Shown here piece by piece: positions 138 to 36,568 of a stretch of 64,000 nt of DNA. The stretch lies in the NCBI GenBank assembly GCA_039648975.1, contig JBBWZK010000069.1, positions 4,428-68,427 of the forward strand, in the 5' to 3' direction. The notes under the pieces were generated by a model. The model did not search any database and had not been told where the DNA came from. It saw nothing but the letters and a program-made list of their open reading frames with translations. Numbering within the stretch: position 1 is the first letter of the stretch; each line of letters opens with the position of its first letter. Position numbers and translations under genes: made by a program. Source of the DNA: Blastocatellia bacterium (GTDB lineage: Bacteria > Acidobacteriota > Blastocatellia > UBA7656).

Positions 138-1118
138 ATGGACGATACTCAGATGTCCTTACGTAAGGAGACTTTAGACAATATGCCCGTATTTGACCTT
201 TACTCTAAACGGCAAAAGAAATTAAGGGGTGAAGTGCCGGACATTTATCAGTATGATGATATTCCGCGCGAGCTTCGAGTCCAAATTATCCATATATGGG
301 AGGATGCTTTTTCTAATAACTCTGGAGGTTACATTCAATACGGGAATGAGTTAGTGCATGAAGTCTATAGGCAAATAAATAACATTTTGTGTAGAGAGTA
401 TGGATTATTTGAACTCTTGGAAGATGCGGATTCTCAATATCGTGATGCCCTTGTGAGTTTTTTCCTTTCGTCAGGAACGGATAAAGCACTAGATATAATC
501 GAATTATCTTTTCGTTTTGTTGCCCTAGTTGCAGGAAGTTCTGATTATCAAGTAAGAGTCAGACCATTACTCAATCCCGATGAAGCCATTGAAGAGTTGA
601 ACCAGCGGTTTCGTGAGCAGGGCATTGGCTATCAGTTTGAATCAGACAAGTTAATACGTATTGATTCGCAGCTAATCCATGCAGAGGTTGTAAAGCCCGC
701 GTTGAACTTTTTGAGTGACGTACGGTTCAAAGGCGCAAATGAGGAGTATTTGAAAGCTCATGAGCACTATAGGCATAGAAGATATAAAGAATGTCTGAAT
801 GACTGCCTCAAAGCATTTGAGAGCACAATGAAGGCAATTTGTGACAAGCGTGGATGGACATACAGTCCGACCGATACGGCGAGCAAGTTGATTGATGTCT
901 GTTTCAAGAATGGTCTTATTCCATCACTCTTGCAAAGCGAATTCTCTGCATTACGGACGACGCTAGAGTGCGGAGTGCCTACGGTTAGGAATAAACTCGG
1001 CGGGCATGGTCAGGGGGCACAGCCGACAACCGTCCCAAGTTATCTGGCGAGTTACCTACTGCACCTGACTGCAACGAACATTCTGTTGCTGGTCGAAGCT
1101 GAGAAAGAATTACCGTAG
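138..1118 (+). CDS. AbiJ-NTD4 / HEPN-domain protein (abortive-infection type, STM4504/CBY_0614-like)
   Basis: The N-terminus YSKRQKKLRGEVPDIYQYDDIPRELRVQI matches my memory of the AbiJ N-terminal domain 4 signature. The C-terminus has an Rx4-6H HEPN motif, R-N-K-L-G-G-H-G (nt 987-1007). The gene is AT-rich relative to its flanks. Confidence 0.6.
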   Translation: MDDTQMSLRKETLDNMPVFDLYSKRQKKLRGEVPDIYQYDDIPRELRVQIIHIWEDAFSNNSGGYIQYGNELVHEVYRQINNILCREYGLFELLEDADSQYRDALVSFFLSSGTDKALDIIELSFRFVALVAGSSDYQVRVRPLLNPDEAIEELNQRFREQGIGYQFESDKLIRIDSQLIHAEVVKPALNFLSDVRFKGANEEYLKAHEHYRHRRYKECLNDCLKAFESTMKAICDKRGWTYSPTDTASKLIDVCFKNGLIPSLLQSEFSALRTTLECGVPTVRNKLGGHGQGAQPTTVPSYLASYLLHLTATNILLLVEAEKELP

Positions 1119-1133
1119 GCCAAGAGGACACTT

Positions 1134-2015
1134 ATGGCTGACGAGAACAAAATCCGTGATGCTGCCGACGCCGTGAAAGGTATTGTTGAAGCCGTGCCTG
1201 TTTATCAGGATGCGTTACAGCCTGCCGCGAAGGAGATAGGCGCTGCGCTCCAAAAAGTAACTAAGGCAATACACGTTGCGCTGGCTCCTATCTCGGCTCT
1301 TGTGTGGGGCTATGAAAAGATTGCGGAGTATCTTGATAAGGCGCTCACTGAAAAGTTGAAGAAAGTACCGCCTGAGCGAATTGTCATGCCAAGCCCCAGT
1401 GTGGCTGGCCCGACAATTGAGGCATTGCGGTTCGTAGCCCATGAACCTACCTTGCGCGAATTATATGCGAATTTACTCGCAACTGCTATGGACGCTGATA
1501 CAGCGATAAGCGCACATCCAGCATTTGTAGAAATAATCCGGCAGTTGACACCACATGAAGCGCGCTTGATTTCTCATATGGCTACCTCGTTGTTTAATCC
1601 AGTGCTTTCTGGAGGTATCTCGTTGTTGATTAATGAAGAGGAGGCTGTCATGGAGTTTAGGCATTATTCATTGTTAGACCAAGAAATAGGATTGGAGCAA
1701 GAAATACAAGGCTGGCCTATAGGTCTAACCCTTAGCTACTTAGATAATTTAATGCGCTTAGGACTCGCTGAAATTCTCCCGGCGGTCGAGCAAGGCGACA
1801 TATCTCAATCCAAATATCCCCTGATAGAAGAGCGCGCAAAAGCAGTCGTAACCAATATAGTATCCATGCAGGGAGCAGGAGGAGAGACAAAGGTGAGTTC
1901 ATTAGAGATTAAGGATATACGAACCAGCAAAGAGCTTATACGCCTCACTGCATTAGGCCACCAGTTCCACAGCGTATGCATGGGCAGTCCTGAAAGCAAT
2001 CAGGCAGAAAAATAA
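1134..2015 (+). CDS. Abi-alpha (DUF4393)-like protein
   Basis: Starts 15 nt after the HEPN gene on the same strand. The segment PSPSVAGPTIEALRFVAHEPTLRELYANLLATAMD resembles the conserved core I recall for DUF4393/Abi-alpha. This is a recollection, not a search result. Confidence 0.45.
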   Translation: MADENKIRDAADAVKGIVEAVPVYQDALQPAAKEIGAALQKVTKAIHVALAPISALVWGYEKIAEYLDKALTEKLKKVPPERIVMPSPSVAGPTIEALRFVAHEPTLRELYANLLATAMDADTAISAHPAFVEIIRQLTPHEARLISHMATSLFNPVLSGGISLLINEEEAVMEFRHYSLLDQEIGLEQEIQGWPIGLTLSYLDNLMRLGLAEILPAVEQGDISQSKYPLIEERAKAVVTNIVSMQGAGGETKVSSLEIKDIRTSKELIRLTALGHQFHSVCMGSPESNQAEK

Positions 2016-27874: not shown

Positions 27875-30800
27875 ATGCGTATTGACGAATCAACCCGCAA
27901 CACACTTAGCCAGTACCTAACGGATATTCGAAGCCTGCCGAACGAGTCCGCGAAAACAAACAGGTTCTCCGCGCTCGTTGCCACGTTGTTTCCCGGCACC
28001 TCTGCGTCCACTGAGTTAGCAGCAGGGGTCGAGAAGATGATTCGCATCGATACGTTGGACGGTGAGAAGCGAGGGCGGATGGATGCCTATTACGGCAATG
28101 CAATCGTGGAGTTTGAAAGGTCTTTGAAGGCTACTGGGGCGGAAGCTGAAAGGCAGTTGAGGGAGTATACGGCGGGCGTTTGGAAAAAGAGCAAGGAGAG
28201 AAGACAAATCCTGTGTGTAGCTTCTGACGGTATCGTGTGGAAAACTTATCGGCCATCGCTCAAGGAAGGAACGAAGGCGAAAGTCACACCTGAAGACGTT
28301 GTATTGGAGTCACTGAGAACTATTGAAGTCACCGAGCAAACGCTTGATGACTTTTATATGTGGCTGACCAGTTTTCTTTTCCGGCCTTCTCGCATCGCGC
28401 CGACCGCAAGTCAATTCCAGTTTGACTTCGGGGCAACCAGTCCGGCCTTTGTCGATGCGATGGAAACATTAAGCCGAGCATGGGAAGCCGTTAGTAAAGA
28501 GTCCGAGCCGCAGTTGATGTACAACACATGGCAGAGGTATTTGACGGTCACATACGGCCAACTCGGCAAGGCTGAAACTCAAGAACTCCACAAGCTGTTT
28601 TTGAAGCATACCTATCTCGCAAGCGTTGCCAAACTGCTGATATGGGCATCCCTCTCGCGTGGCAGAACCGAAACCAGCCTTCGTGAAGTTGCGAAGGAGA
28701 TTCTGTCGGGCCAATATTTTCAAGCTCGAAAGATTGCCAATCTCGTTGAGGACGATTTCTTTCAGTGGGTGAGGCGGCCAAAAGCTGAAGCCATCGTTTC
28801 GGAAGTATGGGAGCGAATCCTCGACCAGATGACCACTTATGATTTGCCGCTTCTCAATCAAGATGTTCTGAGGGGCGTGTATCAAGAGCTAGTCGACCCG
28901 AAAGACCGTCATGAATTAGGCGAGTACTATACGCCCGAATGGTTATGCGAAAGGGTTGTCGATGAACTACTACCTTCAAGCGGGTTCGTGAGCGTTCTCG
29001 ACCCCACATGCGGCTCAGGCAGTTTTCTACACGCTGTCATTGCTCATCAATTAAATGCAAATCAGGAAGGCGGAGATGCAACACGCCTGCGCCAAATACT
29101 CGAAAACGTAGCGGGGATAGATATTCATCCACTGGCCGTCACTATAGCGAAGGCTACTTATTTGCTCGCGGTGCGCTCGCTGTTGAAGGCAACGAAGCGG
29201 CCCATTCAAGTCCCTGTCTACCTTGCCGATTCGCTCTTTCTACCAAGAGAGGTGTCACAAATGAGTTTTGGCGAAGTGCCAGGCTATGAGATACGCTTCG
29301 GCAAAGATAGCAAGGTGTCCATCCCTGAAGAACTTGTCCAAACGCCCGAATTGTTTGACCCCGCGATTGCGGCATCGGCGCAGATTGCCCTCGACCATGC
29401 AAAGACCAATAAGGAGAGCGAGAAATCACTTCAGGCATATCTAAAGCAGGCCGTGCCCGAACTCATCGAGCATAAAGACTCGGATGCGATGGTTACTGCG
29501 CTTTGGTCTTTCACAAAGGAGTTGAGCAGCCTGATAAAGAAGAAAGAGGACACCATTTGGGCCTTCATCGTGAGGAACAGCTACCGGCCAGCGATGTTCC
29601 GAGAAAGATTCGACTATATAGTTGGCAACCCTCCGTGGCTCTCATACAGATACATTTCTGACCCTGAGTATCAAGCCGAGGTAAAGAAGCGGGCCATTGA
29701 CGATTATGGCATAGCTCCTAATTCTCGAAAGCTATTCACGCAAATGGAGCTTGCTACAATCTTCTTAGCTCACACTCTTTCAACATTCGGGCGGAAGGAT
29801 GCTCACCTCGCATTTGTATTGCCTAGAAGCGTGGTGTCGGCTGACCAGCATGAGAATTTACGAGTACGCAGCTATAAAGCGCCGATAGAACTGTATGAAC
29901 TTTGGGATATGGTTGATGTATATGAAATATTCAAGGTTCCGACGTGCGTCCTATTCGCTAAGAAGATAGATAAGCCCGTCGTACCTTCCACCAACTATTC
30001 TCTTCCTGCAATCGAATGGAGCGGCGACTTACCATCCCGCGATGTGGCATGGAGTGAGGCGCAGAACTATTTAACAAGTGAAAAAGCCACAGCGAAGATT
30101 ATCTATCTAGGAGAGCGCACCGCCCTTTCCACGAAGCCCGGTAGAACCAAGCCCAACTCTCCCAGTTTGTACTCAAAGGATTTTCATCAGGGAGCTACCA
30201 TTGTCCCGCGTAGTGTCTACTTCGTTCAGGCCGAGGGGCTTGAGGGCGAAGCGGACGCCGATAGTCTCTACTGGGCAGAAACCGAGCCTGAGCAAGCTAA
30301 GGAGGCAAAGGAGCCGTACAAAGATGTTTATCTCAAGGGACACGTTGAGGGACGCTTTTTGTTTTCGACGGCTCTATCTAGGCACGTCCTACCGTTCGTA
30401 TTCTTAGAGCCTGCCGTCGTGGTTCTACCTGTCGAAGAAAATAAAGGAAAATTAGAGTTAAAGACTGCCGACCAGTTAAGAGAGGAGGGATACAGAGAAT
30501 TCTCGTCTTGGATGGAGCAAGCTGAGACAATATGGAACTCAAAGCGCGGAGATAAAGCCGACAAGCAAACCATCTATGAAAGGCTAGATTATGGTAGTGG
30601 ACTGACCATCCAAAAACCTAATGCAAAATACATCGTGCTTTACAACGCCGCAGGAACTAACATCTCGGCAACTCGCGTGTTCCGAAAGGACTTGGTGCTT
30701 CCTTTTATTATCGAGCATAAATTGTATTGGTGTGCTTGTGCGAACGCTGACGAGGCAGATTACTTAACGGCAATTCTGAACGCTGAGTATGTTAACGATT

Positions 30801-31066
30801 TAATCAAACCCTTCCAGTCTCATGGACTAATGGGCGAAAGGGATATTGAGAAGAAGGTTCTAGACCTTCCCATCCCTCCGTTTAACCCTAATAAGTCAGA
30901 GCACAATGACATTGTTGAATTAGGGAAACGGGCGCGACTCGAAGCGGCAGCATTCGTAAAGAAAGTCTCTTTTCCAAAATCGCTCGGCAGACGCCGCGCT
31001 ATGGTCAGAGAGGCTATTGTGGACACGCTACAGGAAATCGACATGGCTGTAAAAAAACTGTTTTGA
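27875..31066 (+). CDS. MmeI/PglX-like single-chain N6-adenine DNA methyltransferase (possible type IIG/IIL enzyme)
   Basis: SAM motif I is VLDPTCGSGSFL (28994-29029) and motif IV is NPPW (29627-29638). The N-terminal block GRMD70AYYGNAIVE79FE81R resembles the MmeI-family D..ExK nuclease motif, with Lys replaced. About 400 aa of TRD-like C-terminus follows. GGGAGG lies upstream of the ATG. Confidence 0.75.
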   Translation: MRIDESTRNTLSQYLTDIRSLPNESAKTNRFSALVATLFPGTSASTELAAGVEKMIRIDTLDGEKRGRMDAYYGNAIVEFERSLKATGAEAERQLREYTAGVWKKSKERRQILCVASDGIVWKTYRPSLKEGTKAKVTPEDVVLESLRTIEVTEQTLDDFYMWLTSFLFRPSRIAPTASQFQFDFGATSPAFVDAMETLSRAWEAVSKESEPQLMYNTWQRYLTVTYGQLGKAETQELHKLFLKHTYLASVAKLLIWASLSRGRTETSLREVAKEILSGQYFQARKIANLVEDDFFQWVRRPKAEAIVSEVWERILDQMTTYDLPLLNQDVLRGVYQELVDPKDRHELGEYYTPEWLCERVVDELLPSSGFVSVLDPTCGSGSFLHAVIAHQLNANQEGGDATRLRQILENVAGIDIHPLAVTIAKATYLLAVRSLLKATKRPIQVPVYLADSLFLPREVSQMSFGEVPGYEIRFGKDSKVSIPEELVQTPELFDPAIAASAQIALDHAKTNKESEKSLQAYLKQAVPELIEHKDSDAMVTALWSFTKELSSLIKKKEDTIWAFIVRNSYRPAMFRERFDYIVGNPPWLSYRYISDPEYQAEVKKRAIDDYGIAPNSRKLFTQMELATIFLAHTLSTFGRKDAHLAFVLPRSVVSADQHENLRVRSYKAPIELYELWDMVDVYEIFKVPTCVLFAKKIDKPVVPSTNYSLPAIEWSGDLPSRDVAWSEAQNYLTSEKATAKIIYLGERTALSTKPGRTKPNSPSLYSKDFHQGATIVPRSVYFVQAEGLEGEADADSLYWAETEPEQAKEAKEPYKDVYLKGHVEGRFLFSTALSRHVLPFVFLEPAVVVLPVEENKGKLELKTADQLREEGYREFSSWMEQAETIWNSKRGDKADKQTIYERLDYGSGLTIQKPNAKYIVLYNAAGTNISATRVFRKDLVLPFIIEHKLYWCACANADEADYLTAILNAEYVNDLIKPFQSHGLMGERDIEKKVLDLPIPPFNPNKSEHNDIVELGKRARLEAAAFVKKVSFPKSLGRRRAMVREAIVDTLQEIDMAVKKLF

Positions 31067-31190
31067 TAGTTGTGTCTTTTTTTTAAGTTAGACAGGCTAG
31101 AGGTTAGAAGCGGAGAAACCTTCCTTGCTTGACAGAGTAACTGCCAGTCAAAATAATGAGGCCGCACGTCATAGGAAGAGGGGAGAGCGT

Positions 31191-32342
31191 GTGAGTCAGC
31201 ATAACCAGATGGACTTATTTGGTCAGCCAATAACTGAAAAAGTCCTATTAGAAAATGACGTTCACTTGCTGGCCCTAACCGAGATTCAGGGTATCGGTTC
31301 TGCGACCGCTCGGTCATTTTTTGAAATGTTTGATGGCGATTTATCGCGGGTTTGGAGCGCGCAGGCAGAAGAGTTATATGAAGGGCTGCGGAAGTCACGG
31401 GCGCAACATCCGATAAATATTGTCAACAAAATACACAAAGACTCTGCGAAGCTAATCGAGTTGGCGCGAGACCGGCTTCGGATGTTCAAGGAGCGAAGGA
31501 AGATTTCGGTCATTTTCCGCGACACCCCCGAATACCCAGTCACGCTCCTTGACCTGCCTAATCCGCCTGCATGGATATTTGTACAGGGCGATTCAAAGCT
31601 CCTACACAACACAAATCTCGTCGCGGTTGTTGGCACTCGCACGCCCACAGAGAACGGAATTGAAGCGGCCAAACGGCTCTCAATTTTACTCGTCACAAAC
31701 GGAGCCTTGATTCTGTCGGGTTTGGCTGAAGGCATAGACGAGGTGGGCCATCGCACAGCCGTCGACCACGGTGTTCCTACCGTCTCGGTGTTAGGTCACG
31801 GCATCGACATCGTATTTCCTCGGTCAACTGCTGCCTTACGGCAACAGATAATCGATGTCGGCGGCGCTGTGGTGACTGAATATCTGCCGAGAGACTCCTA
31901 CAATGCCGAGCGATTCGTTCAGAGAAACCGCATTCAGGCTGCGCTCTCACAAGCGGTTGCGATTGTGGAAGGAAAGACAAAGAGCGGTACGGCGCATACG
32001 GTACGTTTTGCCAAACAACTTAAAAGGCCGTTGTTCGGCGTCCGAATTGGTCGGCCAACTAAGTCACCGAATCAGGAATTGCTCGAAGAGTTGAGTAAAA
32101 ATAATGCGCCCGTGTTTGACCTCGATGCTCTTGATACAAAGGAAGCTCTGACTAAATTTATGCACGAGCATCTTTCTTTGGGCAATAATCTACATGCCCC
32201 TGCCAAGCCGTCGCGGTTCCGCATGATTCTGAAAGAACTCGATAGGATTATTGAATACTATGGCGCGAATGACGCAGACTATCAGTACCTCATTGATGAA
32301 ATAGACCAACGCCGTAAAGGAAGTAAGAAAGATGCCAATTAA
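31191..32342 (+). CDS. DprA/Smf-family (SLOG Rossmann) protein
   Basis: VAVVGTRTPTENG..LSGLAEGIDEVGHRTAV..TVSVLGHGIDIVFP..RFVQRNRIQAAL..VEGKTKSGTAHTVRFA is the DNA_processg_A pattern. An N-terminal HhH/SAM-like segment (LLALTEIQGIGSATARSFF) is present. The start is ambiguous: TTG 31125, GTG 31191 after GGGGAG, or ATG 31209. Confidence 0.8.
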   Translation: MSQHNQMDLFGQPITEKVLLENDVHLLALTEIQGIGSATARSFFEMFDGDLSRVWSAQAEELYEGLRKSRAQHPINIVNKIHKDSAKLIELARDRLRMFKERRKISVIFRDTPEYPVTLLDLPNPPAWIFVQGDSKLLHNTNLVAVVGTRTPTENGIEAAKRLSILLVTNGALILSGLAEGIDEVGHRTAVDHGVPTVSVLGHGIDIVFPRSTAALRQQIIDVGGAVVTEYLPRDSYNAERFVQRNRIQAALSQAVAIVEGKTKSGTAHTVRFAKQLKRPLFGVRIGRPTKSPNQELLEELSKNNAPVFDLDALDTKEALTKFMHEHLSLGNNLHAPAKPSRFRMILKELDRIIEYYGANDADYQYLIDEIDQRRKGSKKDAN

Positions 32343-33486
32343 GGCTGTTATACTCGACCTTGATGGAACGCTCATCGATACCACGGACAATATCGTGGCC
32401 GGTGTTCCACAGATGATTTCGAGTCTTCAACAGAATGGCGTAGCCGTCTATGTTGCGTCCAACAGATTGCCTGCGCCACCAGTGGATTTTAATGGGCTAG
32501 GAATAACTCCGAACGAGTACCTCACGAGGCGCAGAGTTGGCCAACGTAAGGGAACGGGTGCGTTTGTTGATGCGGTTCTAGCAAACCTTAGAATCGAAAG
32601 AAATGAACTCCTATATTTGGGAGATTCCGTCAATGATATGAGAGAGGCTGTTAATAGTAAGGTAGCCTTCTTTCTAGCGGCTTGGTCAAATCCAACGTAT
32701 TCATACGGGCTTGCAATTAAGACGCCTGCGCGATTTGCTCATATCGTGAAGACTTTTTTCTTAAAAGACAAGCTATGGTTTTACCGGATAAACAGTGTCG
32801 ACCACCTTACTCGAACTGTCGCTGTACGAGCACTCCTAGACCCGGACACCGCAATTTCAACTGGCATCAGAGACCTCCTAAAAAGGAATATACTTGGCCC
32901 ACCTATAAAGACCTATTCCCTACCTGCCTATTTATCCTTCCATCTGTTCTCAAGCGTGTATCTTGAGGGCTTACATTTACATGGAAGTCAGGGAGGGCCA
33001 ACCATTTGGTGTATTTATCCGGGGCATGATGGCAGTCAGGGCAGAGTCTTAAGTACTTTCGCACAGGTGGTATCACGATTGTTTCATGACAATTATCAAC
33101 CTTCTTTAATTAATCGGCATACTCCTTCTATAAAAAGTGCATATGCACGATGGCGCGGCGAAACGGTCGATTTTGCTAATCAACTAAAGACAATCAACCT
33201 CTCTCCTGCACTTCGCAGATTCATAGAAGACAGGACTATATTAGTCTTTGACGATTTCACTACTGAGGCTTATAGCTTTGAAGCGGCAAGGAACTTTTTA
33301 TACAACGCAGGTGCGCGTGAAGTAATCAGTATTGCTGTTGGGAAGTATCGGAAACCCTACTATCCTCACTGTCCACATCCCGGCGTTGTTTGGGATAGTT
33401 TCGCTCCCGCCAATCTTGAGGATAGAGATTTTAGAATCGACGCAGTTGAGGAAAACTACGACCTCGATGCGGTCACTCCCTTTTAG
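32332..33486 (+). CDS. HAD-phosphatase :: ComF/GntX-like phosphoribosyltransferase fusion
   Basis: HAD motif I is VILDLDGTLIDT and motif IV is YLGDSVNDMREA. The C-terminus IWCIYPGH..LINRHTPSIKSAYAR..ILVFDDFTTEAYSFEAARNFLYNAGAREVISIAVGKY is a PRTase fold with a non-canonical PRPP loop. It overlaps the DprA-like gene by 11 nt. Confidence 0.65.
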   Translation: MPIKAVILDLDGTLIDTTDNIVAGVPQMISSLQQNGVAVYVASNRLPAPPVDFNGLGITPNEYLTRRRVGQRKGTGAFVDAVLANLRIERNELLYLGDSVNDMREAVNSKVAFFLAAWSNPTYSYGLAIKTPARFAHIVKTFFLKDKLWFYRINSVDHLTRTVAVRALLDPDTAISTGIRDLLKRNILGPPIKTYSLPAYLSFHLFSSVYLEGLHLHGSQGGPTIWCIYPGHDGSQGRVLSTFAQVVSRLFHDNYQPSLINRHTPSIKSAYARWRGETVDFANQLKTINLSPALRRFIEDRTILVFDDFTTEAYSFEAARNFLYNAGAREVISIAVGKYRKPYYPHCPHPGVVWDSFAPANLEDRDFRIDAVEENYDLDAVTPF

Positions 33487-33526: not shown

Positions 33527-33558
33527 AAAAAAAAGGGGCAAGCCCGAAAGCCTACCCC
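33527..33558 (-). terminator. Intrinsic terminator of 33568-34194
   Basis: The minus-strand RNA is GGGGUAGGC-UUUCGG-GCUUGCCCC followed by U8. The G-U pairs make the stem strand-specific. Confidence 0.65.
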
Positions 33559-33567
33559 GCCTGCGCT

Positions 33568-34194
33568 CTACAGCGTGCCGCATGGTCTAGCACCACTCCA
33601 TACCCGTTTGAGGCTGCCGCCCGGCCCCCACTTCGTCTTCCGATACAAGGCGTCCACGTACCAAACGTAACGCACGCCGTCCTGCAAGGTACGGAGGCAC
33701 ACGATGTCTACGCCGCCTAAGTTCTCATAAGGCAGTCTGTCCCTGCCCAAGTTTGCCCACTCGCCGCCCGGCTGGATTCTGTGCCCGTGCAGGCGGTAAA
33801 ACCCGTCGTCCTTAGAGTGCGAGTTCCAGCCAAACTGGAGGCGCTCCTCGTGCAAGGCGTACCCCTCGCGGGAAAGAAACCAGCGCCGCTTGTACTCCTC
33901 AAGGCCCGCCAGTTTCATGTCCATGTCGACTACCACGATGCCGTCGTGCGCCTCCCGCCTGTCCCTGTCGTGGCTGTAGTTGGATACACGCTCCGACGCC
34001 AGAAGCCAGATAGCCCGTGCGTGCGTTTTCACATAGTCGCTCACTGCAATAGCCGCAGCCGTAAAGTCATCCTCGGTTACGGATTCCTTAGCTGCTTTGC
34101 GCCGTGCCGAGCCGCCCGCATGACGAGCGCCGGTCGCCGTAGGCAGATAAATCACGTTGGTCGTTTCTGTGTTCTCGGTTCTTTCGTTCATCAA
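33568..34194 (-). CDS. Hypothetical protein (GC-rich orphan inside the island)
   Basis: 208-aa ORF with its own terminator. I recognise no motif. Confidence 0.4.
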   Translation of the reverse strand: MMNERTENTETTNVIYLPTATGARHAGGSARRKAAKESVTEDDFTAAAIAVSDYVKTHARAIWLLASERVSNYSHDRDRREAHDGIVVVDMDMKLAGLEEYKRRWFLSREGYALHEERLQFGWNSHSKDDGFYRLHGHRIQPGGEWANLGRDRLPYENLGGVDIVCLRTLQDGVRYVWYVDALYRKTKWGPGGSLKRVWSGARPCGTL

Positions 34195-34599: not shown

Positions 34600-35295
34600 A
34601 TGAGTGCACCAGATAAACAACCACCGAATCGTTACGAGAATTACAAAAAACGAGCTAAAAAACAGGAAGACTTTACTAGGAAATCCACTATCAACGTGAC
34701 TATATCAATTATAGTGGCGCTATTCGGATTAGTGTTCGCTCTATTTGTCATGTATAAAGATGTTGAATTTCAAAAGCAATACAATTGGAAATTGATAGCG
34801 GTATTGAGTTCTATCGGGTTCATAATTCTTGCTCTAATGGCCTTATATACGCCACGATTACTGAAATTAAATCCAAAAACGGAAAGTCAGACAGAAAAAA
34901 AAGAGGTGGGATTAAGGGCTACAGTTGTCGGCTTATTAGTAGATGATAAACAAAAGAGCTTTTTTACTATATATATATCACTTTTAATAGGTTTCCTTAT
35001 TTATCTAGTTTCGATTTATTTTGCAGGTCAGGCTATAAGCATAGGAACTCTGTCTTTACTAGCAGCTTTCCTATTAGCACTCTTTCTTAACCAATACTTA
35101 TTGAAGTATCGATTGAAATATGGATACTTTGGCACGACCGAACACGAAGCACGCGAGATAATTGACCTAATTCTCAAACATTCTGATAAATCAGACTTCT
35201 CCGATGGGGATGGCCTTAATGAGCTTTTCCCTGAACCAGAGAGAGGGGGGACGGGGCATCGAGTATTAGTTCCATCACTGGACAATGACAGATGA
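34600..35295 (+). CDS. Four-TM membrane protein, unknown function
   Basis: 231 aa with four hydrophobic helices and a Lys-rich N-terminus. It is very AT-rich. Confidence 0.5.
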   Translation: MSAPDKQPPNRYENYKKRAKKQEDFTRKSTINVTISIIVALFGLVFALFVMYKDVEFQKQYNWKLIAVLSSIGFIILALMALYTPRLLKLNPKTESQTEKKEVGLRATVVGLLVDDKQKSFFTIYISLLIGFLIYLVSIYFAGQAISIGTLSLLAAFLLALFLNQYLLKYRLKYGYFGTTEHEAREIIDLILKHSDKSDFSDGDGLNELFPEPERGGTGHRVLVPSLDNDR

Positions 35296-35738
35296 AAAAC
35301 GCTGATGCTGATTCGGTGACAGCCTTTCTTAAACGGGCAACTGATATTTTGTTCGTACAGAACCCAAAAGGAACTGCACTAGGAGTCCTCTTCGGATTTA
35401 TGCTGTATGGACTTTCACTAATGTTTGCTCCTGCTTTGGGAAAAATTAGCTTTATAGACCTTACTAAGGTTTATGCAATCTACTATGTGATTTTCGGAAT
35501 GTTCGTTTTTAACATACGCTCTTACTTTCGGAGACGAGAGTTCAGCCCGGAAATTGAAAAGGCATTTGAGGTAATTAGGGAAGCACGCAAGTCAGGGAAT
35601 ATGGGTGAACTAGAAGCAAAGATAGAATATCGCAAACTGATTCATAAGGTGTTGGAAGAAGTAACAATCAAGGTTCCTCCAACACCTGAACCGCGACGCC
35701 GAAAACCTATTGCCTCCAAATCCCAATCAGGTAGTTAA
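35292..35738 (+). CDS. Two-TM membrane protein with a charged helical tail, unknown function
   Basis: 148 aa, with an ATGA overlap onto the previous gene. It is AT-rich. Confidence 0.5.
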   Translation: MKNADADSVTAFLKRATDILFVQNPKGTALGVLFGFMLYGLSLMFAPALGKISFIDLTKVYAIYYVIFGMFVFNIRSYFRRREFSPEIEKAFEVIREARKSGNMGELEAKIEYRKLIHKVLEEVTIKVPPTPEPRRRKPIASKSQSGS

Positions 35739-35809: not shown

Positions 35810-36568
35810 TCACATCAGTTGGCACAACGCTATTTTCCAGCCGGTCAACCCTTGGGGTACAGCCTTAAAACGACGGTGTTCCGTCCCGAATAGCAAAATG
35901 TTATGCGCCCCCGCCGTAGCCACTTCGATTGCCCGCTTCGCATGCGCCTGGCCGCGCACTTCGCGGAAGTCTTCCGGGTAATCATCGAGGTGCGCCAGCA
36001 AGGTTTCGGCTTCGATCTCAAGCGGCGCGGGCGGCGTCGGGCTATTGATCAACTCGACTACCGCCTTGAGCGAAGCGACCGGATAAACGTTGACGCCCGT
36101 GACGACCGCCGCTTCCTCGGCGTTCTCTTCGGGCAGCAGCAAACGCTTTGCGCCATTAGCCCGCGCTGCTACCGCGATGGATAGCGCGCCCTTGACGGGG
36201 CGCACGCGACCGTCGAGCGATAACTCGCCGACGATCACCGTGTCGGTCAACTCTTCGCATTTGAGGTCGCCGTTCGCGCCGAGAATGCCGACGGCAATCG
36301 GCAGGTCGAAGCTTGAGCCTTCTTTCTTCACATCGGCGGGCGCGAGGTTGACCGTGACGCGATGAATCGGGAAGAAGAAGCCGCAGTTATTGATGGCGGC
36401 GCGAATGCGTTCGCGGCTCTCGCGCACGGCGGCGTCCGGCAGTCCGACCATAGTGAACGACGGCGCGAGGCTGTCGCCCGCCTTCGGCGTCAGGTCAACT
36501 TCAACGTCCATCACGTAGGCATCAATGCCATACACGGCGGCGCTCAAGGTCTTGAATAGCATGGCCAC
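35810..36568 (-). pseudogene. comM: comM/yifB (Mg-chelatase-like competence ATPase), 5' fragment truncated by insertion
   Basis: The N-terminal Lon-like domain and ..DFREVRGQAHAKRAIEVATAGAHNILLFG are intact. The expected GPPGxGKT is replaced by TEHRRFKAV... from nt 35884 downward. A stop follows at 35810. Confidence 0.8.

Follow-up and report, generated by a model that had tools for sequence, protein, structure and literature searches.

A prophage integrated in comM of a Blastocatellia bacterium carries a divergent ShosTA toxin–antitoxin module

Within the window, i.e., the whole stretch of 64,000 nucleotides analysed here (contig JBBWZK010000069.1 of a Blastocatellia bacterium), a protein composed of a HAD-fold hydrolase domain and a PRTase domain is a divergent ShosT, the toxin component of ShosTA (Shosta), a type IV toxin-antitoxin system directed against phages, and the gene directly upstream encodes its DprA-like antitoxin, ShosA. 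This membership rests on sequence, fold, key residues, gene order and context, while the complete reading, in which the two genes (Table 1) form a ShosTA anti-phage module carried as prophage cargo in comM, has in our estimation a probability of roughly 0.88. The module is divergent but ordinary, for its architecture is already known: the initial annotation, made from the sequence alone, regarded the fusion as undescribed, but it matches in both sequence and fold ShosT, of which crystal structures have been solved (PMC11961720; PMC12961424; PDB 8ZVB-D, 9W2P/Q). Identifying the fusion as a protein whose structures have been solved and whose mechanism is published thus removes a false lead, and it provides a correct annotation for a prophage-borne block of defence cargo in an environmental genome.

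Table 1. Location of the shosTA genes, their predicted promoter and the domains of ShosT in the window.
Feature	Position	Strand	Evidence
Likely shosA-shosT promoter, TTGACA-17-AATAAT (11/12 matches)	31129..31157	+	Consensus scan only
shosA, DprA-like antitoxin, 383 aa from GTG 31191	31191..32342	+	PADLOC, PDB, Pfam, residues
shosT, toxin, 384 aa	32332..33486	+	PADLOC, PDB sequence matches, AlphaFold/Foldseek
Capless HAD-fold hydrolase domain of ShosT, aa 1 to about 145	32332..32766	+	Pfam/NCBIfam HAD matches, Foldseek, motif tallies
Non-canonical type I PRTase domain of ShosT, aa about 150-384	32779..33483	+	E. coli ShosT alignment, hhalign, PF00156 in homologues
Predicted PRPP-binding loop of ShosT, V305-FDDFTTEAYS-315	33244..33276	+	Alignment to E. 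coli ShosT and canonical loops

The shosT open reading frame starts with ATG, 9 nt downstream of a Shine-Dalgarno sequence (AAGGAAG), and its product is recognised by the PADLOC ShosT models PDLC03962 (E=1.9e-34) and PDLC03012 (E=2.9e-26), as well as by the phage family PHROG 10564 (2.6e-25), PHROGs phage families existing for ShosA too. At the sequence level, it also matches the E. coli ShosT crystal structures (8ZVB/C/D, 9W2P/Q) in the PDB (phmmer, E=9e-26 for 8ZVB). The ShosT family is of moderate size, 273 clusters (formed at 50% identity) scoring E<=1e-30. A structure predicted by AlphaFold from an alignment of 27 sequences (mean pLDDT 93.6, pTM 0.92) contains the two-domain ShosT fold, i.e., an N-terminal Rossmann/HAD-like hydrolase followed by a C-terminal PRTase. 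When this model is compared with the PDB using Foldseek, ranks 1-3 are occupied by 8ZVC, 8ZVD and 8ZVB, all matched over the full length with a TM of about 0.7 (for 8ZVC: E=7.7e-28, TMq 0.76, 423 aligned columns), and the next matches are KdsC, GmhB and other small capless HAD phosphatases. Such a structure prediction had been proposed in the initial annotation, much of which stands: the open reading frame and all the motifs quoted for it are real, the combination of a HAD-like hydrolase with a type I PRTase is a genuine two-domain protein, and the implied point that this protein is not a housekeeping enzyme is upheld.

The C-terminal half of ShosT holds the three quoted strings YPGH (Y229-P-G-H232), RHTPSIKSAYAR (R262-HTPSIK268SAYA-R273) and VFDDFTTEAYS (V305-FDDFTTEAYS-315). 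The Pfam family Pribosyltran (PF00156) does not match the window ShosT itself, but it matches 10 of 27 close homologues, and a profile of the C-terminal half of the family can be aligned (hhalign, probability 93.5%) with seven canonical PRTases encoded by this genome. The domain can be placed among the PRTases at the level of fold and superfamily, with a motif that is non-canonical. Across the PRPP loop, the profile alignment is ungapped and pairs E312 with the Thr, A313 with the Gly and S315 with the Thr/Ser of the canonical motif; the canonical loop reads (D/E)D-x-x-x-T-G-x-T, the ShosT consensus D-D-F-T-T-x-G-x-S and the window loop D-D-F-T-T-E-A-Y-S. The acidic pair is kept, and an Ala at the canonical loop-Gly position is also found in the PRPP synthetase of the same genome. 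Hence, the loop does depart from the textbook motif, as had been noticed, although in another manner than was described: there is no deletion before TT, where one residue was said to be missing (the alignment to the seven canonical PRTases being ungapped), and Glu312 does not replace the loop Gly but stands at the canonical Thr, the Gly position being held by Ala313. Likewise, the epithet “ComF-like” is appropriate for the PRTase fold but not beyond, the ComF of H. pylori appearing at Foldseek rank 48 with a TM of 0.31.

The suggestion that such a loop would point to a non-catalytic, sensor-like role finds no support either. E. coli ShosT shares the DDFxTE pattern, and PRPP-Mg is bound at this loop: its IDDFCTEGNA (D331/D332/E336/G337/N338) contacts both the hydroxyls of the ribose and the 5'-phosphate, the backbone of E336-N338 holding the 5'-phosphate site (PMC12961424). 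The toxicity of E. coli ShosT requires D331/D332 and R285 (PMC11961720; PMC12961424). According to pairwise alignments, E. coli H240, K280, R285, D331 and D332 correspond to H232, K268, R273, D307 and D308 in the window protein. Moreover, R262, R273, D307, D308 and T311 are near-invariant across 262 aligned full-length members of the family, a biased sample collected with the window protein and E. coli ShosT as search seeds. That the toxicity residues D331/D332/R285 are the near-invariant D307/D308/R273 of this alignment further counters a sensor-like role.

The protein encoded upstream of ShosT is the DprA-like antitoxin ShosA. It matches the PADLOC ShosA model PDLC03961 with E=1.4e-75 and the Pfam family DNA_processg_A at 7e-58; in the PDB, its E-values are 8e-44 for ShosA 9VZO and 1e-43 for ShosA 8ZVA, against 2e-20 for a true DprA (3UQZ). 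The Arg residues by which E. coli ShosA binds ssDNA (R139/R234/R261) are conserved, as is R206 among the basic residues contacting RecA, of which K200 is replaced by R; at the dimer interface, D/H stand in place of L181/F182 in the window protein. The mechanical call of the shosA open reading frame runs from TTG 31125 to 32342 (405 aa). ShosA homologues have 383-385 aa, with alignments starting at residues 21-25 of this 405-aa frame, and the candidate promoter falls within its 5' end, past the stop codon of the preceding methyltransferase gene (31066) and a T-run, so that translation likely starts further downstream, at GTG 31191, which is preceded by the Shine-Dalgarno sequence AGGAAGAGG. The end of shosA overlaps shosT by 11 nt, and the overlap is identical in the closest homologue (57% identity), the two genes being in the same order in E. 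coli phage 10W, with a 1-nt gap. In five of six independent homologous loci, ShosA lies directly upstream of ShosT, the exception being one Chloroflexia MAG homologue without an adjacent ShosA. The housekeeping dprA of the genome is a separate, better-scoring gene on another contig.

The module is part of the cargo of a prophage whose insertion site is comM. An element of ~40 kb splits this gene, with its N-terminal part at window positions 35885-36565 (minus strand) and its C-terminal part where the contig begins, abutted there by a large serine recombinase of 559 aa. Three congeneric genomes have an intact comM, and this gene is a common attachment site of serine-recombinase elements. Terminase genes and XRE-type regulators are found in the element, along with other defence-type cargo at its left end (one AbiJ-like and one Abi_alpha gene), whereas shosTA is located at its right end, in a block of lower GC content (0.49 vs 0.56). 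All 40 related genomes searched lack a full-length homologue of ShosT, which fits a horizontal arrival of ShosTA with the prophage; in Enterobacteria, ShosTA occurs in P2-like prophages. Across the whole window, there is no match to Rfam structured RNAs and no tRNA gene, and a search for repeats around the shosTA operon gave nothing meaningful.

Regarding function, the toxicity of ShosT, its neutralisation, the trigger and the defence itself would follow for the window pair by analogy with the E. coli work, a transfer over a long distance, given that identity to the sole characterised ShosT is only 28%. The E. coli ShosT is a toxin that ShosA neutralises with no binding between the two, and together they confer protection against phage, 10^6-fold in the case of T7 (PMC11961720; PMC12961424). 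Transposed to the window pair, the PRTase domain of ShosT would bind PRPP and transfer its phosphoribose to an acceptor, which would upset purine/nucleotide metabolism, damage or duplicate DNA and halt growth. The N-terminal HAD-fold domain may assist by hydrolysing a phosphate-containing product, PPi having been proposed as the substrate of the hydrolase domain in E. coli ShosT (PMC11961720; PMC12961424). ShosA would be a labile, DprA-like ssDNA-binding protein acting with RecA, able to repair or prevent the damage without contacting ShosT. A phage that shuts off host transcription, or that floods the cell with ssDNA, would then cause ShosA function to be lost, and the ready-made ShosT would abort the infection. 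For the E. coli system, two trigger models have been published, and they differ from each other (PMC11961720; PMC12961424).

The same two proteins could also serve mainly in addiction, i.e., in stabilising the prophage, instead of defending against other phages. Their position on a mobile element, beside the attachment site, suits such a role, as does the history of the system, which was originally identified as a toxin-antitoxin pair, according to the citation of Kimelman 2012 in 10.1101/2022.05.11.491447. Yet, with the 10^6-fold protection that E. coli ShosTA confers against T7 (PMC11961720; PMC12961424) and the other defence genes among which the window pair is found (type IIG enzyme, AbiJ-like, Abi_alpha), we consider addiction as the main role to be very unlikely. 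Addiction and defence roles of ShosTA are not mutually exclusive.

A slightly more improbable reading involves the 1063-aa type IIG-like methyltransferase encoded just upstream of shosA. The methyltransferase gene, shosA and shosT lie side by side, in one orientation, within a single low-GC cargo block, and they could form a modification-linked defence of a new kind, made of this MmeI/PglX-like enzyme, the DprA-like protein and the HAD-PRTase fusion. However, tblastn finds the methyltransferase at none of the seven homologous ShosTA loci examined, where the upstream neighbours all differ (helicase, HTH gene, Imm21, phage gpA), and a near-consensus promoter and a T-run stand between the methyltransferase gene and shosA. 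Moreover, the enzyme is self-sufficient, as it matches the PADLOC model of single-polypeptide type IIG enzymes with E=1.6e-79. We thus rejected the three-gene system: being absent near ShosTA in homologous loci and separated from shosA by the latter's own (consensus-predicted) promoter, the methyltransferase is a neighbour and not a component. The least likely reading of all, a competence module whose ComF-like PRTase and DprA would compensate for, or interfere with, transformation in a host with a split comM, draws on DprA, ComF and ComM all being transformation proteins, on the interruption of comM by the element and on the presence of H. pylori ComF (7P0H) among the Foldseek matches, but it was rejected on the fold ranking (rank 48 for ComF versus 1-3 for ShosT) and on the separate dprA retained by the genome, and it is further opposed by the N-terminus being a HAD domain and not the zinc-finger domain of ComF, by the far better fit of ShosA to solved ShosA than to true DprA and by the general frequency of comM as an attachment site for serine-recombinase elements.

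Returning to the ShosTA module, the comparison with E. coli brings a useful by-product, in that the PRTase residues are near-invariant family-wide, whereas the clade of the window protein has retained the HAD catalytic set that the clade of E. coli ShosT has lost. The N-terminal HAD motifs had been reported as complete, and all four are indeed present: motif I is D9-L-D11-G-T13, motif II S43-N44, motif III K73 and motif IV G97-D98-S-V-N-D102. The Pfam families Hydrolase, HAD_2 and Hydrolase_3 match aa 6-114 above their cut-offs; among NCBIfam models, HAD-IIIA is the best, yet below its cut-off, and none of the named HAD subfamilies reaches its own. In the biased sample described above, the catalytic set (D9/K73/D98/D102) is intact in about 46% of the 262 proteins. 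It is intact in 34/34 members of the window clade (defined by at least 40% identity) and in 86 of the 207 remaining members of the family, against 0/21 in the E. coli ShosT clade, where the nucleophile has become Ser (S9) and the first Asp of motif IV Arg (R98).

Pairwise alignment further equates N53 and K92 of E. coli ShosT with N44 and K73 here. The window protein has no basic counterpart of E. coli R56 (phosphate site), the region aligning with a gap, and R56 is the residue that was mutated in E. coli ShosT to probe the hydrolase domain (PMC11961720). The window protein has the canonical HAD catalytic residues instead, and the absence of R56 is a difference between clades and not a feature defining the family. 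In E. coli, the “pyrophosphatase” activity of ShosT is Mg-independent and mutating it barely changes toxicity (PMC11961720), two observations with which the loss of the HAD set in that clade is consistent. Conversely, the conservation of the full catalytic set in the window clade suggests that the domain is there probably a real, genuinely active Mg-dependent phosphohydrolase.

A tentative extension, which we regard as rather doubtful, is that the window clade and the approximately 46% of the 262 sampled proteins with a competent HAD domain reflect an ancestral two-step ShosT, in which transfer by the PRTase would be followed by dephosphorylation of the product or of PPi by means of the Asp nucleophile, the E. 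coli mechanism being a degenerate derivative. If this were true, the product might be, e.g., a toxic nucleoside instead of a nucleotide, and the window clade would be better suited to finding the acceptor substrate of ShosT. Because the HAD set is kept here and lost in the E. coli clade, which was used in all experiments, members of the family resembling the window protein are in any case the natural choice for testing the hydrolase domain and the acceptor substrate.

Among known systems, the closest is ShosTA of E. coli APEC O1 and P2-like prophages (ShosT 8ZVB/8ZVC/8ZVD, 9W2P/9W2Q; ShosA 8ZVA, 9VZO), in which ShosT consists of an N-terminal domain of hydrolase/pyrophosphatase fold (1-164) and a non-canonical monomeric PRTase domain (165-424) (PMC11961720; PMC12961424). 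Both toxins share a HAD-fold hydrolase and a non-canonical, monomer-type PRTase with the DDFxTE loop, and both modules have a DprA-like antitoxin immediately upstream, a location in prophage cargo and the residues for PRPP contact, ssDNA binding and RecA contact. In contrast, identity to the E. coli counterparts is only 28% for ShosT and 36% for ShosA. The window ShosT is 40 aa shorter, keeps the HAD nucleophile and the motif IV Asp (DLDGT, GDSVND) where the E. coli clade has S9 and R98, and has Ala at the loop Gly of E. coli ShosT, whereas the window ShosA has an extra C-terminal tail of ~65 aa, absent in E. coli, and a different dimer-interface pair.

PsyrTA/RqlHI also pairs a DprA-like antitoxin with a PRTase-containing toxin causing DNA damage and filamentation, and the PADLOC PsyrA model matches the window ShosA at 1.9e-27, but the ShosA and ShosT models score far better and PsyrT, a fusion with a RecQ-like helicase, represents another toxin architecture. 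ComF (ComFC) has in common with ShosT the type I PRTase fold, a PRPP loop containing DD and a functional link with DprA; it differs by its N-terminal zinc-finger and the lack of a HAD domain, and its structural similarity to ShosT is weak. Finally, the small capless HAD phosphatases (KdsC/YrbI, GmhB; HAD-IIIA) and the HAD-type pyrophosphatase BT2127 display the four motifs and the capless Rossmannoid core of the ShosT N-terminus, from which they differ by the PRTase fusion of the latter; the small capless phosphatases are the best structural matches outside ShosT (Foldseek), and it is with the PPase of B. thetaiotaomicron that Pu et al. compared the hydrolase domain of E. coli ShosT (PMC11961720).

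The comM gene is split by an element of about 40 kb, which extends from the contig start to window position 35885 and contains a terminase gene, tail-size ORFs and XRE regulators. This element is a prophage, placed in comM by a large serine recombinase (see table). Three congeneric genomes have an uninterrupted comM, with open frames of 527–543 aa.

The AbiJ_NTD4 + DUF7014 and Abi_alpha proteins both have strong PHROG matches, and their gene pair is probably a second abortive-infection module. The two membrane proteins each match PHROG families of unknown function, with additional weak matches of the longer one to SLATT_1 (E = 7e-4) and PycTM (E = 2e-3); together, their genes may form a membrane effector module. 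As for the ORF convergent with shosT, it has no match in Pfam, NCBIfam, PADLOC or PHROGs, and a strong intrinsic terminator lies beside it (33535–33558, followed by T8). Finally, the type IIG-like enzyme is matched by the PADLOC model REase_MTase_IIG (1.6e-79), as well as by the N6_Mtase, Eco57I and MmeI_Mtase models. Judged by synteny, it is independent of ShosTA, and its nuclease activity is uncertain from its sequence, because its N-terminal block reads D...ExE at the position of D...ExK in MmeI-type enzymes.

Coordinates of the features discussed (L024, piece at the contig start, left of the window; L011, Escherichia phage 10W locus)
Feature	Position	Strand	Location
Large serine recombinase, 559 aa	L024:520-2199
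comM parts	L024:2-526 + window 35885-36565
AbiJ_NTD4 + DUF7014 protein (326 aa), adjoining Abi_alpha protein (293 aa)	window 138-2015	+	prophage left end
Single-chain type IIG-like enzyme, 1063 aa	window 27875-31066
ORF convergent with shosT, 208 aa	window 33568-34194	-
Two overlapping AT-rich membrane-protein genes, 231 + 148 aa	window 34600-35738		extreme end of prophage
Escherichia phage 10W ShosT	L011:1180-2451

Outside this genome, a Chloroflexia MAG (contig_39593) encodes a solitary ShosT homologue (48% identical) that lacks an adjoining DprA-like gene. Its neighbours are P450, thioesterase and TetR genes, with a gene of the LOG/SLOG type 4.4 kb downstream. This homologue may be either an orphan ShosT or a domesticated one. 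The precomputed Pfam HAD match is absent from close enterobacterial ShosT homologues, but present in more distant ones. The E. coli ShosT clade (phage 10W; P0182–P0203), which includes the characterised protein, lacks both the HAD nucleophile, IFSIADVV replacing ILDLDGTL, and the first Asp of motif IV, which reads GRSQED.
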